The notes beneath the pieces were generated by a model. The model saw only the letters and a program-made list of their open reading frames with translations, searched no databases and had not been told where the DNA came from. A stretch of 64,000 nucleotides of DNA from NCBI GenBank assembly GCA_963666485.2, contig CAXXUO010000004.1:96001-160000 (forward strand), read 5' to 3'. Source of the stretch: Syntrophorhabdaceae bacterium. GTDB lineage: Bacteria > Desulfobacterota > Syntrophorhabdia > Syntrophorhabdales > Syntrophorhabdaceae. Numbering within the stretch: position 1 is the stretch's first letter; each line of letters opens with the position of its first letter. The position numbers were made by a program, and so were the translations under genes. Shown here piece after piece: positions 50,795 to 60,411 of the stretch.

Positions 50795-51288
50795 CGGCGT
50801 ACGGCTAACGGCTAACGGCTAACGGAAAAAATCCCAGTAAATTAATTCGGAAAACAATTCTGACAATTAAGGGATAGGTCTGTGTCAAAGGGGGGATTTA
50901 GAAATCTTAAGGTCTGGCAGCGAAGCAAAGATCTGGCGGTGAGGATATATAGCGTAACAGGTGATGGGAAATTCGAAAAAGATTTCGGTTTGAGAGACCA
51001 ACTGAGGCGGGCCAGCGTATCCATTCCCAGCAATATAGCTGAAGGTGACGAAAGAAATACTGACCGCGAAGCCGTCCGCCATCTCTACATTGCAAAAGGA
51101 TCTGCCGCCGAGTTACTGACCCAACTGATAATAGCCCACGAAATTCGATATTTGGACACGAATTTATTTAAAGATCTCGAAGATGATTGCCTGGCAATTT
51201 CCAGCATGCTTTCAAAATTAATCGCCTCCCGCTCCAAAACTTTCAGAACCGATGAATGTCTTTCCCGTTAGCCGTTAGCCGTACGCCG
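50795..51288. mobile_element. Four-helix-bundle gene cassette bounded by a perfect 24-bp inverted repeat
   Basis: cggcgtacggctaacggctaacgg (50795-50818) is the exact reverse complement of 51265-51288; mobility is inferred. Confidence 0.5.
50882..51271 (+). CDS. Four helix bundle protein (23S rRNA IVP family)
   Basis: FRNLKVWQ, FGLRDQLRRASVSIPSNIAEG, IAKGSAAEL. Confidence 0.92.
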   Translation: MSKGGFRNLKVWQRSKDLAVRIYSVTGDGKFEKDFGLRDQLRRASVSIPSNIAEGDERNTDREAVRHLYIAKGSAAELLTQLIIAHEIRYLDTNLFKDLEDDCLAISSMLSKLIASRSKTFRTDECLSR

Positions 51289-51289
51289 C

Positions 51290-51955
51290 TTACCATTTGT
51301 ACCTATCTTCCATAAACGAATAATACATATACCCAAACCGGTTATACCAATCTTTCTCACCGTAATATTTGGCCTCACACTGGTCGATCTCCTGCAGCAC
51401 GGCTTTCAGTTTATCGGAGAGTTCCTGGTGTTTGTTGCGGTATGCCTTTTCGAAATTCTTGAATGACGCCTCTATCTTGCGCCTTTCCGCCTGCCAGCCA
51501 AGACCTGCCACCCCATGCACGCCCGATACGCTGTCCCCGAACGAAAGGGAACTCTTTGTGAAATCTTCGGTGGCTATCTTGAGTGCCCGGAGCTTTTCGA
51601 AGTTTACTCTCAGCCTGTACAGCTTGTCATATGCGCCTTTATAACAATCCTTGCAGCCGTCCTTCTTCAACTCGTCACAGCTTGTCGGGACCTGGGGCAT
51701 CCCCGGGGGGTTGTAATTCGGGTCCGCCTGCTTGTCGAGGTCGGAAAGAGGTTTGAAACTGTCGAAAAGATTGACGGCGCCTTTCGATATATCCTGTGCC
51801 TGTTTTGACGAGTCATATGCCTTGCCTAAGGTGTCCATACCCTTCCAGAGGTCCTGAATGGGCAATTCGGAAGGGCCGGCAAGGGCACATAACGGTAAAA
51901 CCAGCAATACAGATACAAAAGAAACGACAGTATTTTTTATCATTATCTTTTTCAT
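51290..51955 (-). CDS. Hypothetical exported, helical protein
   Basis: Signal-peptide-like N-terminus, four Cys in the mature part, coiled-coil-like C-terminal half. Confidence 0.6.
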   Translation of the reverse strand: MKKIMIKNTVVSFVSVLLVLPLCALAGPSELPIQDLWKGMDTLGKAYDSSKQAQDISKGAVNLFDSFKPLSDLDKQADPNYNPPGMPQVPTSCDELKKDGCKDCYKGAYDKLYRLRVNFEKLRALKIATEDFTKSSLSFGDSVSGVHGVAGLGWQAERRKIEASFKNFEKAYRNKHQELSDKLKAVLQEIDQCEAKYYGEKDWYNRFGYMYYSFMEDRYKW

Positions 51956-52569
51956 TATCTTCGACCCCGCTTAAGAAATATGATCAGGACGATAAGGATC
52001 GCGGCAAGCAATACGGCAATAATCCAGAGCACTGCCGATCCCATACCGAACCCGCCGCCCATACCGCCCTTCATTTTCTTGTACTCCTCTTTCGGAATGA
52101 AGGCGGGCCTGATAGCCGGCCGGATCTCGTCACCTACCCAGACAACCAGTTGATAGGGCCTCTCACCCTGGGCGGACGCGACAAAGATCTTGAGATCGCC
52201 CTCCGTGCGGAGCTTGAACGTCTGGACGCCTGACCCTTTCGTTGACCCCGACTTCTCCGGCTTTTTCCAATCGAACTTGCACACCTGGAGCGTCAGGTCC
52301 GCGTCCTGGTCCTTCGACAGGAGCGTGACTTCCACCGGCTGCAGGATACCGAGTCCCTCAACGATGAACTTCTCCCCGCCCTGCCCTACGGTTCCCTGCA
52401 AGGCCATGACCTTGCCATTGGGAACCCTGGGGTCCTGCTTCGGCACGATCCTGAATTCCTGGGCCCCTGCATAAACCGGCAAAAGAAAGGCCAGGAGCAG
52501 CAAGAAGGAAAACAACGCGGCCACCGTTCTGCGCAAACACCTGATGTGACGTAAAGGCATTACTTTCAA
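51955..52569 (-). CDS. Hypothetical exported protein with C-terminal membrane anchor; start uncertain
   Basis: Signal-like segment ending VYA; C-terminal hydrophobic helix followed by KRGRR; stop overlaps the next ATG. Confidence 0.6.
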   Translation of the reverse strand: MKVMPLRHIRCLRRTVAALFSFLLLLAFLLPVYAGAQEFRIVPKQDPRVPNGKVMALQGTVGQGGEKFIVEGLGILQPVEVTLLSKDQDADLTLQVCKFDWKKPEKSGSTKGSGVQTFKLRTEGDLKIFVASAQGERPYQLVVWVGDEIRPAIRPAFIPKEEYKKMKGGMGGGFGMGSAVLWIIAVLLAAILIVLIIFLKRGRR

Positions 52570-52723
52570 GGAGCAACTCCTTTAGACATTATTGAAGTTG
52601 AGTTTTGAAATTTATATCCCGCGGGGGAGGAAGTGTCAACAGGGATGCGTTGCTTTATGGTGAGAACTATATGATGTATGACGTACATAGTCAATATCAT
52701 TGAACATAAAGGATAAAAGACAC

Positions 52724-52750
52724 TGGATTCCGGCTTTCGCCGGAATGACG
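52724..52750. repeat. REP-like hairpin
   Basis: tggattccggctttcgccggaatgacg. Confidence 0.85.
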
Positions 52751-52774
52751 GGTGGTTGGTTGGAAAAGAAAAAC

Positions 52775-53169
52775 CTTGTATGATACTCCCCGTGGAATAT
52801 CACGAACAATCCATGATAGAAAAGAGAAAAAGGTTGCCGGTGTGGCAGGCCGTAAAAACCAGGGGATGATATCCCGTATCCAAGCTCGGGCCGCCACACC
52901 TTCTCCTTACAAACCCGGACAGTTGCAGGGGACTCGTACCAGGAGATCCCGCATTGCACAAGGAAGGGACACGGGAAAAAGGGGTGATATCATGGACGAC
53001 GTCTTCATCGGGATCGACATATCGAAAGAGCATTGTGACCTCGCGGTCATACCGGGCGGCACGCAGAAGAGGTTTACAAACGACGAGGAGGGCCACGAGG
53101 CGATCCTTGCCTTCGTACTTCCTCTCAACCCTTCCCGCATCGTCATCGAGGCGTCGGGAGGATACGAGA
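52775..53169 (+). mobile_element. Truncated IS110-family element (left end, bridge RNA region and 5' part of the recombinase)
   Basis: Left junction CT|TGTATGAT, a structured non-coding leader, then a DEDD recombinase N-terminus. Confidence 0.8.
52830..52975 (+). ncRNA. Putative IS110 bridge RNA (boundaries approximate)
   Basis: Stem ggtgtggc/gccacacc encloses TAAAAACCA, hairpin gggat-gat-atccc and ATCCAAG. A second loop contains GGACAGTTGCA, gggactc/gagatccc and ACAAGG. Confidence 0.7.
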
Positions 53170-53231
53170 TGGGAGCAGGGAAAAATTTGGGGGACGTCCT
53201 TAAGAAAGTAAGAAACTCCTCAAACAACTAA
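52992..53231 (+). pseudogene. IS110 recombinase fragment (about 60 homologous codons)
   Basis: MDDVFIGIDISKEHCDLAV...FTND...IVIEASGGYE; similarity ends where a foreign repeat begins. Confidence 0.85.
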
Positions 53232-53401
53232 ACGGACCGCCCTGTCGTTATTATCCCCGGACCGGGTGATTTTAAGTTACTTACTTTCTTAAGGACGTCC
53301 CCTTTGCCTTTATAAGTTACTTACTTTCTTAAGGACGTCCCCTTTGCCTCGGACCGGGTAATTCTAAGTTACTTACTTTCTTAAGGACGTCCCCCTTGCC
53401 T
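53189..53401. repeat. About 37-bp repeat: one forward partial copy and three inverted copies
   Basis: ggggacgtccttaagaaagtaag at 53190; taagttacttactttcttaaggacgtcccc(t/c)ttgcct at 53273, 53313 and 53365. Confidence 0.9.
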
Positions 53402-53404
53402 TTA

Positions 53405-53424
53405 CGGCTTCCGCCGGAATGACG
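53405..53424. repeat. Partial REP-like hairpin lacking its TGGATTC start
   Basis: cggcttccgccggaatgacg. Confidence 0.75.
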
Positions 53425-53475
53425 AGGGTGTGGTTGGATTCCGAATTCCGAGACTGTATCCCAATTCAAAAAGGT

Positions 53476-53598
53476 CGTCATTCCGGCGCTTGACGCCGGA
53501 ATCTAAGGTTTTTCTTTTAGGTCTTTCCATAAAAATGGAACCGGGACAAACTAACAAAAATCAAACCTTGGATCCCGGTGTCAAGCACCGGGATGACG
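53476..53598. repeat. Inverted doublet of REP-like hairpins (REPIN/MITE-like)
   Basis: cgtcattccggcgcttgacgccggaatct ... tggatcccggtgtcaagcaccgggatgacg. Confidence 0.8.
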
Positions 53599-53739
53599 AA
53601 GAAGGCTTATTCGGGCGGGTGTAGACTAACGGCTTACCGCGAGCGGTTTGCGGTGTACGACGAACGAGTGGGTGAGAAATTGTGACACAGCCTTCGCCGA
53701 AGTGCCAGGTAAGGGTAAGTCGTTTCCGTTCGTCCCCAA

Positions 53740-53780
53740 CCGCTCGCCGTTAGCCGTTAGCCGTACGCCGTTAGCCGTTA
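53740..53780. repeat. 7-bp CCGTTAG tandem array overlapping the stop of the FAD oxidase gene
   Basis: ccgctcg ccgttag ccgttag ccgtacg ccgttag ccgtta. Confidence 0.85.
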
Positions 53781-55144
53781 AATATCTTCCCCGGGTTCAA
53801 TATATTATTCGGGTCGAAGAGGGCTTTGATCGACTTCATGGCCGCAATCACGTCGGCGGACAATTCCATATCGAGGTATGCCGATTTCGCTATGCCGATG
53901 CCGTGTTCACCCGAAAGCGTGCCGCCAAGGCGAACAGTCTCAGCGAAGATGTCCTTGACCGCCAGCTCTGCCTTGTGGCGGTCTTCGGGGGTATCTTTTA
54001 TCATGATGCTCACGTGAAAATTGCCGTCACCCGCATGGCCAAAACTCAATATAGGTATCTCGTACTTTTTCTCGAGGGCCTCAAGTATCCGGATCAGAGA
54101 AGGGATGTGAGAACGGGGAACGACCACGTCCTCAGCTATCTTGACCGGGTTCAGATTATACGTTGCCTGGGACAGGACGCGCCGGGCCTGCCACAGTTTA
54201 TCCGCCTCGACCGGGTCCCGCGTCACATCGCACTGCAGGACATTCTGTTCGGCCAATATCGCGCGTATCTTTTCGACCTGCGGCCCTACGGACTCCTCGT
54301 GGCCGTCAACCTCGATAAGGAGCAACCCGCCCACATTCTCGGGCAACCCCATGGGGGAAGCCTTTTCGCTGCAGCGGACGGAAGCCCTGTCCATGAACTC
54401 TATCGTCGACGGTATCACCTTTGCCGCAATGATGGCAGACACGGCCCGGGCGGCATCTTCGACTTCACTGAAGAGCGCGAGTATGGTTGCCTTTGCTTCG
54501 GGCATGGGGAGAAGCTTCACGATGATCTTTGTGATCACCCCGAGAGTGCCTTCACTTCCCACGAAAAGGCGCGTCAGGTCATACCCGACAACCCCTTTCA
54601 TCGTGCGCACGCCCGTGTTGAGGATCTCGCCCGTCGGTTTCACCACCTCGAGCCCGATGACATAATCGCGTGTAACACCGTATTTGAGAGAATTCGGCCC
54701 GCCGGCACACTCGGCGACATTCCCTCCTATGCTCGAATACTTGTACGACGCAGGGTCCGGCGGATAAAAAAGGCCGTACTTTGCCGCTTCCTGCTGGAGG
54801 GCGAACGTGACGACCCCCGGTTCGACGACGGCGATGAGATTCTCCTGGTCTATCTCGAGGATCCGGTTCATTCGCGTGAAAACGAGGATAACACCTTCGA
54901 CAACCGGAGTGGAACCGCCTGTCAGGCCCGTACCGGCCCCCCGCGGGATAACGGGAAACATGTGCTGGTTGGCGAGCTTCAGGATCGCGGACACTTCCTG
55001 CGCTGAGGACGGAAACACGATGAGTTCCGGCACGATCCCGTCCGTTCTGGCATCATACGAATAGCACCTGCGTTCCTCAAGTGAATCGACCACATTCTCC
55101 TTGCCGACTATCTTTCTTATCTCTTCAATGACCCTGCTATCCAC
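53771..55144 (-). CDS. FAD-linked oxidase/dehydrogenase, GlcD / D-lactate dehydrogenase family
   Basis: Likely GTG start at 55144; PRGAGTGLTGG, YPPDPAS, SEGTLG, GHAGDGNFH, SGEHGIG, NPGKIF. Confidence 0.9.
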   Translation of the reverse strand: MDSRVIEEIRKIVGKENVVDSLEERRCYSYDARTDGIVPELIVFPSSAQEVSAILKLANQHMFPVIPRGAGTGLTGGSTPVVEGVILVFTRMNRILEIDQENLIAVVEPGVVTFALQQEAAKYGLFYPPDPASYKYSSIGGNVAECAGGPNSLKYGVTRDYVIGLEVVKPTGEILNTGVRTMKGVVGYDLTRLFVGSEGTLGVITKIIVKLLPMPEAKATILALFSEVEDAARAVSAIIAAKVIPSTIEFMDRASVRCSEKASPMGLPENVGGLLLIEVDGHEESVGPQVEKIRAILAEQNVLQCDVTRDPVEADKLWQARRVLSQATYNLNPVKIAEDVVVPRSHIPSLIRILEALEKKYEIPILSFGHAGDGNFHVSIMIKDTPEDRHKAELAVKDIFAETVRLGGTLSGEHGIGIAKSAYLDMELSADVIAAMKSIKALFDPNNILNPGKIFNG

Positions 55145-60297: not shown

Positions 60298-60411
60298 CGT
60301 CTCCCCGGCCCATGAGCCGGGGCCCAAGGTTTCTCTTTCTTTTATTTTGGGTAGGAATAGAAATAAACCAAAAAACAATACCTTGGGTCCCGGGTCAAGC
60401 CCGGGATGACG
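60298..60411. repeat. Inverted doublet of REP-like hairpins
   Basis: cgtctccccggcccatgagccggggccca ... tgggtcccgggtcaagcccgggatgacg. Confidence 0.75.

Follow-up and report, generated by a model that had tools for sequence, protein, structure and literature searches.

A truncated IS110 element of the IS621 group, with intact sisters at the foot of one CGTC-type hairpin subtype in a Syntrophorhabdaceae genome

A 64,000-nt stretch from a Syntrophorhabdaceae bacterium (GCA_963666485.2, contig CAXXUO010000004.1, forward-strand positions 96,001–160,000; hereafter the window) carries a truncated IS110 element of the IS621 group. The intact sisters of this element are all found at AAAAC-CT-TGGAT, where a single subtype of CGTC-type hairpin has its foot, and very probably a predicted bridge RNA steers them there by base pairing. 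Three sets of observations bear on this directly: five left and four right junctions, guides that spell both target and donor, and agreement between guides and flanks across relatives. The source genome holds four complete insertions, few events for the statistics given below.

Aligned with the other genomic copies, the window element matches from 52764 to 53178 at 98–99% identity, where the alignment ends (Table 1). The right IS end is absent from the window, and the right ~770 bp of the element are replaced by a piece of a MITE. The reading frame, starting at ATG 52992, matches DEDD_Tnp_IS110 (PF01548) with an E value of 7e-5, below the cut-off, and retains only D9 and E53 of the catalytic motifs. 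Having lost its right end and the greater part of the recombinase, with the MITE piece in their place, this copy cannot move by itself. Two variants are private to the stub and absent from the four intact copies, namely a substitution at 52910 and a 3-nt insertion (52937–52939) in the donor-loop hairpin. Its bridge RNA, if transcribed, could still act as a guide in trans.

Table 1. Features of the window discussed in the text (window coordinates).
Feature	Position	Strand	Basis or remark
CGTC-type hairpin, GACAC subtype, without CT core in register; non-target	52724..52750	+	hairpin census
Occupied target, left half GAAAAAC plus CT core (52775-52776)	52768..52776	+	aligned to 4 intact copies
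IS110 element 5' stub (left end with bridge RNA, and first 62 codons)	52777..53178	+	98-99% identity to 4 intact 1181-bp copies
Predicted -10 box TATGAT	52779..52784	+	computed circle junction, by analogy with IS621
Predicted target-binding loop	52838..52899	+	single fold, consensus fold, covariation
LTG TAAAAACC(A) 52853-52861; RTG ATCCAAG 52878-52884	target loop	+	predicted
Predicted donor-binding loop	52914..52972	+	LDG ACAGTTGC 52919-52926, RDG CACAAG 52957-52962; private 3-nt insertion inside
Truncated recombinase frame	52992..53231	+	79 aa: 62 true codons plus read-through into MITE piece
Internal piece of unrelated ~330-bp MITE, internally duplicated, replacing right part of IS	53179..53404	+	genome copies
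Hairpin remnant without TGGATTC, possible right junction of window copy	53405..53424	+	sequence, body comparison
Hairpin with near-target GAAAAAC-CT-TAGAT	53476..53514	-	kept empty in G011 orthologue
Hairpin with empty site ATCAAAC-CT-TGGAT, best empty site in window	53560..53598	+	census, G011 comparison
TGGGT-subtype hairpin, poor target	60375..60410	+	census

Four full-length copies occur in the genome (C2, C3, C5, C8), each of 1181 bp and with an identical 311-aa recombinase; among solved structures this protein best matches ISCro4, at E 4e-38, and IS621, at E 1.8e-35, over residues 5–302. With the slash marking the junction, the left end reads ...AAAAC-CT/TGTAT in all four intact copies and in the stub, while the right end of all four intact copies reads ACAGTTG-CT/TGGATCCCGG and runs on into an entire hairpin with the end GGGATGACG. 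The target rebuilt from these junctions is NNAAAAC-CT-TGGAT. Both the recombinase motifs (D9, E53, D95, D98 and S233, that is, DEDD plus serine) and the junctions, with a short CT core on either side and no terminal inverted repeats seen in any of the four intact copies, place the element in the IS110 (IS621) group of the IS110 family.

The long, non-coding left end has a further property of this group, predicted target and donor loops with guides that match target and donor. The target loop, with TAAAAACC and ATCCAAG, the latter the complement of CT-TGGAT, spells AAAAC-CT-TGGAT; the donor guides ACAGTTGC and CACAAG match the element's own ends. Folded as a single sequence, the left end forms a stem in which an inner hairpin is surrounded by a large internal loop, though no more stably than its shuffles (z −1.05), so that stability alone is no evidence; a second such loop appears in the consensus fold of eight relatives, where two-sided changes occur at 5 of 36 pairs. 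Handshake pairing of each loop with position 7 of the other DNA is also present, on a mapping that follows PMC11208158: the C after the RTG corresponds to donor G7 and the G after the RDG to target C7, with position 6 unpaired in both. At the computed circle junction the ends read TTGACA (right end)-17-TATGAT, a promoter rebuilt at the level of sequence. Scanning 52500–53800 yielded no Rfam match at the gathering score and no bridge RNA match; a weak match there to Wolbachia sRNA 46 proved to be the hairpin pair.

From the available accounts of IS621 (PMC11208160, PMC13626964) we infer that the bridge RNA is expressed and the recombinase active. By the same analogy, the element would excise as a circle whose joined ends may form a sigma-70 promoter driving the bridge RNA; the target loop of this RNA would pair with AAAAC-CT-TGGAT at the hairpin foot, and a recombinase tetramer would then exchange strands at the CT core.

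How specific the landing sites are can be read from a strict census, which returned 353 hairpins, 310 of them with a TGG-like tail (form TGG-stem-loop-stem-GACG). These 310 have the properties of CGTC repeats as described in the accessible part of PMC3733652: a CGTC-tagged palindrome with a CCA tail, dispersed and often paired. They divide into 150 of GAC(A/G)C type, which lack a CT core in register, 47 ACCT/TGGGT, 35 empty ACCT/TGGAT, three other ACCT, four occupied and 71 others. Every intact copy stands at the foot of a CGTC-type hairpin, at the guide-specified base, and none (0/4) at the 150 GAC(A/G)C-type hairpins. That all four occupied sites fall in the 39-member ACCT/TGGAT class has P=2.2e-4 among the 310 hairpins; the corresponding values are P=0.0065 for ACCT-type hairpins at large and P=0.034 for TGGAT within the 89 ACCT-type hairpins, each resting on four events only. 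Among hairpins with a GGCTC loop, the sole bearer of TGGAT is the occupied C5 site, and 16 ACCT/TGGGT hairpins of the same loop type are empty.

The sequence-only reading had proposed an RNA-guided element programmed to a single hairpin subtype, recognized by an AAACCT-type flank. The guide loop indeed spells the same site as the junctions, and the data support a programmed subtype, AAAAC-CT-TGGAT, that is narrower than all AAACCT hairpins, with TGGAT needed, because the 47 ACCT/TGGGT hairpins are all empty. Empty perfect AAAAC-CT-TGGAT 12-mers number 27, against 0.42 expected under a third-order model, and all 27 are hairpin feet (26 strict hairpins and one with an altered tag); thus landing sites are many, and they are located in repeats. 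The abundance of intergenic sites that had been anticipated is borne out in number, the intergenic position being seen at the window sites. Related copies insert as had been expected from the same reading, at ACCT/TGGAT hairpin feet in 4/4 intact copies, 3/3 right ends from the genome G011 and 4/4 same-branch metagenome right ends (L053, L055, L056 and L064, with L054 of the same branch set apart), and none of these right ends lies at a GAC(A/G)C-type hairpin.

The sequences previously singled out around the stub are all present: AAAAGAAAAACCTTAGATTCCGG on the minus strand at 53518–53496, AAAAGAAAAACCT in the IS left flank (52764–52776) and AAACCTTGGAT at 53563–53573, together with GAGAAAC-CT-TGGGC at 60326 (minus), ACAATAC-CT-TGGGT at 60384 and the remnant CGGCTTCCGCCGGAATGACG at 53405. 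The 13 bases shared by the first two are not a product of chance, but they reflect membership of the repeat family: this 13-mer occurs 17 times genome-wide, at two IS left flanks and ahead of 15 empty hairpins, with TGGAT next in only one of the 15. When scored against the guide (LT TAAAAAC, RT TGGAT), the supposed empty sites nearby are of unequal quality. The site at 53569 is fair, with three LT mismatches (one in positions 3–7) and none in RT, but the other three mismatch the guide: 53505 (minus) by one LT base (none in positions 3–7) and one RT base (TAGAT), and 60384 (three LT, one RT) and its minus-strand partner 60326 (two LT, two RT) by four each. Of 19 genomes of the genus in which the orthologous locus was sought, G011 alone keeps both flanks; there the 53505/53569 hairpin pair is present and empty, without the IS, the MITE piece or the remnant. 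Since the whole block is missing, G011 provides no pre-insertion (empty) allele.

The MITE itself is non-coding and occurs 11 times in the genome, the window piece included; complete versions have inverted ends, and two of three have a 7-base flanking duplication. No match to a Y1 transposase (PF01797) was found in the genome, in a search in which 6 of 14 controls matched. The MITE interior contains an inverted pair of GGGGACGTCC repeats, and in many copies one end is missing or there are internal duplications; loci include window 53179–53404, C1:272392, C1:1230430, C2:355977 and C6:103929, and two truncated copies begin within one base of each other.

Where this piece ends, the sequence-only reading had placed the right junction of the window copy, at the hairpin remnant at 53405, and TGGATTC alone is in fact missing from it. 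Downstream no hairpin comes before it, and its strand is the right one; an insertion in G011 (L171) precedes a hairpin of nearly identical body, and one of the four G000 insertions has an atypical hairpin body. Yet the remnant adjoins a MITE fragment, which splits it from the IS, and not an IS right end, which leaves the junction role unproven. Another MITE piece adjoins a GACAC-type hairpin, at C1:272664, the remnant body is found in none of the 35 empty ACCT/TGGAT hairpins, the flank of its sole other exact copy is GACGC, and the G011 locus is of no help in the matter. We therefore hold the reconstruction only tentatively, leaning slightly against it. That the whole chimera at 53178–53405 is instead an assembly artefact among repeats, with no real deletion behind it, seems improbable. 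Both of its junctions do lie within repeated DNA. Four read runs were compared, three of them from one sample and one without matches, with the joint 52749–53405 (short side 20 letters) left out; none of the contig pieces listed for the three runs crosses the whole stretch, and the private variants of the stub are missing from the IS piece found there. These runs may, however, represent another strain, the private substitution and insertion set the stub apart from every intact copy, and another MITE piece, at C6:103929, begins within a base of the same point.

IS110 matches were found in 35 of 61 genomes searched, and 80 metagenome and 24 genome loci were compared (L denoting loci, G genomes); the closest named ones carry the name Syntrophorhabdus. 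Besides the right ends counted above, same-branch elements occur at TGGAT hairpin feet at one degenerate hairpin in G003. Across loci of at least 38% identity with parsable guide and flank (others left out), the 23 distinct right guides match the right flank at 110 of 115 bases, against a mean of 33.9 and a maximum of 56 in 10000 shuffles, the kin among these loci not being independent. For the left guide, taken in a fixed register with one site per guide, the agreement is 86 of 154 bases over 22 guides (shuffles mean 51.3, maximum 75). Exceptions are L055, which lies at TGGAT despite two right-guide mismatches, L093 and one L080 site.

Within the branch, guide and target change together. The right guide of L054, which is 87% identical, differs from ATCCAAG by one base (ACCCAAG), and the element lands at a TGGGT hairpin (one site). 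In sisters at 81–85% identity the guide reads GTTCCAG and the landing site is CT-GGAAC, in most cases within a 7-bp array, of which (CCTGAAA)n is an example, as seen at 18 of 19 compared among 47 right ends in G016 and at 3/3 right ends in G008. On balance, we read the branch as a natural re-programming series with a nearly fixed donor loop and a few base changes in the target loop, which take it from TGGAT to TGGGT (one base) and to hairpin-free 7-bp tandem arrays, always riding an abundant host repeat. A tree of 35 recombinases did not resolve the order of hairpin and array targeting. We also considered whether the guide simply tracks the only abundant repeat of its host. G016 and G008 have one and no hairpin targets against 47 and 28 array sites, respectively; the idea is weakened by the source genome, which holds 84 GAACCTGGAAC array sites besides its hairpins, so that availability alone does not explain target choice there. 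With the queries used, no element was found in G007 (70 hairpin sites) or G004 (40 array sites).

In G016, the array-targeting sister has 47 right ends, as many as there are TGARAC-CT-GGAAC sites left (47); this is a large and recent expansion, and it breaks up the assembly. In several more distant branches 7-bp arrays recur as flanks (L074–L080, L082, L088), and other palindromic repeats occur there as well: L047–L050 (G059), L065, L066, L067 and L009 each lie in a different palindromic repeat family matching their own guides, and two G059 elements are aimed at two positions of one repeat. A narrow literature search for IS110 elements with heptamer or heptanucleotide tandem repeats as target found none. 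In the source genome, 7-bp tandem arrays (TTAGCCG, CCTTGAA and CGCCCAT types) are common, intergenic and often in inverted pairs beside hairpins; one lies at window 53744–53780.

Two other accounts of the association between element and hairpin deserve weighing. The hairpin might belong to the right end of the element itself and simply be carried along, as the identity of three of the four right-flank hairpins would suggest. The fourth hairpin differs, however, left flanks vary beyond 5–7 bases, 35 ACCT/TGGAT hairpins stand empty of any element, and the sisters contradict the idea outright, since beyond the same right end they have different sequences, which fit their own guides, and no hairpin; we regard it as almost certainly wrong. 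A subtler proposal is a dual match, with the address set by base pairing and a further role for the neighbouring hairpin, which would either be read as well or be required as a structural gate, like the one reported in ISPpu10. Every perfect 12-mer here is at a hairpin foot, making sequence and structure inseparable in this genome, RT overlaps the first two stem bases, and a stem-loop is reported to raise efficiency (bioRxiv 10.64898/2026.03.19.712850, in its accessible part). Against this, the 81–85% identical sister recombinases use CT-GGAAC in 7-bp arrays without a hairpin, and the ISPpu10 stem is 5' and includes LT, whereas the hairpin here is 3'. We think such a gate unlikely, and it would add to guidance by base pairing, not replace it.

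Elsewhere in the window, 50882–51271 encodes a 23S rRNA intervening-sequence protein of the four-helix-bundle type (PF05635), set among intergenic repeats. On the minus strand, 51290–52569 encodes a pair of proteins of 221 and 204 aa, predicted to be exported or membrane-bound and without a Pfam match; in G011, G012 and G015 they likewise adjoin this oxidase gene.

Among the closest known systems is IS621 of E. coli, which inserts into palindromic repeats guided by a bridge RNA (PMC11208160, PMC11208158, PMC13626964; PDB 8wt6; these and the papers below as far as their text was accessible). Shared features are DEDD plus a catalytic serine, a left-end RNA, the CT core, two loops with four guides, insertion into a palindromic repeat and a promoter rebuilt across the circle junction, computed in our case. 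In contrast to IS621, the element has its own guides, a CGTC-type hairpin tail in place of an enterobacterial REP, a 7-base right guide complementary through position 14 and a recombinase that is only distantly related (E 1.8e-35). Elements of the IS110 family confined to a single repeat position have long been known (PMC1525189) and are explained by the bridge RNA (PMC11208160). ISPpu10, ISPpu9, ISPa11 and ISRm19 likewise have all copies at one repeat position, with many intergenic sites, often paired (PMC1525189; bioRxiv 10.64898/2026.03.19.712850); unlike them, the present element inserts at the foot and leaves the hairpin whole on the right. In Neisseria, the IS110-family transposase of prophage Nf1 uses one subtype, at a CT, of dRS3 (PMC7058167), a CGTC-type repeat also known as CGTC-1 (PMC3733652), but the CT in that case falls within the repeat and the cargo is a prophage, whereas here a plain IS uses flank and tail. 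ISEc11 and ISXne4 are relatives naturally re-directed by guide RNA changes (PMC11187229); they form a 72% identical pair of the IS1111 group, in contrast to the 81–87% series described here, between hairpin subtypes and 7-bp arrays. The hairpins resemble the CGTC superfamily (PMC3733652) in the 8–9 bp stem, the CGTC tag at one end, the CCA tail at the other, the dimers and the lack of a Y1 transposase match in the genome, and differ in the longer loops of some subtypes and in conserved A-rich flanks; the accessible sections of that paper report no regular association of CGTC repeats with transposase genes. In the searchable portions of the Durrant supplements, neither the 12-mer target nor the genus name gave a match, although the element may be in those data; of 55 matches there to a guide-region 10-mer, the two listed are other elements.

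REP-targeting IS110s, bridge RNAs and natural re-aiming have thus been published, and since its mechanism is known from other IS110 elements, the element adds a clean example to an established kind of system. With it, the range of REP-targeting IS110s comes to include the tail of CGTC-type hairpins. It also confirms, from genome data alone, that reading the bridge RNA can predict to one base which host-repeat subtype an IS110 uses. The greatest interest lies outside the window, in a close-knit series of natural changes in the guide, by which one recombinase is shifted from one hairpin subtype to another and to tandem arrays; these relatives are natural guide and target pairs on almost the same recombinase, useful for working out the rules of re-programming and whether a hairpin is needed.
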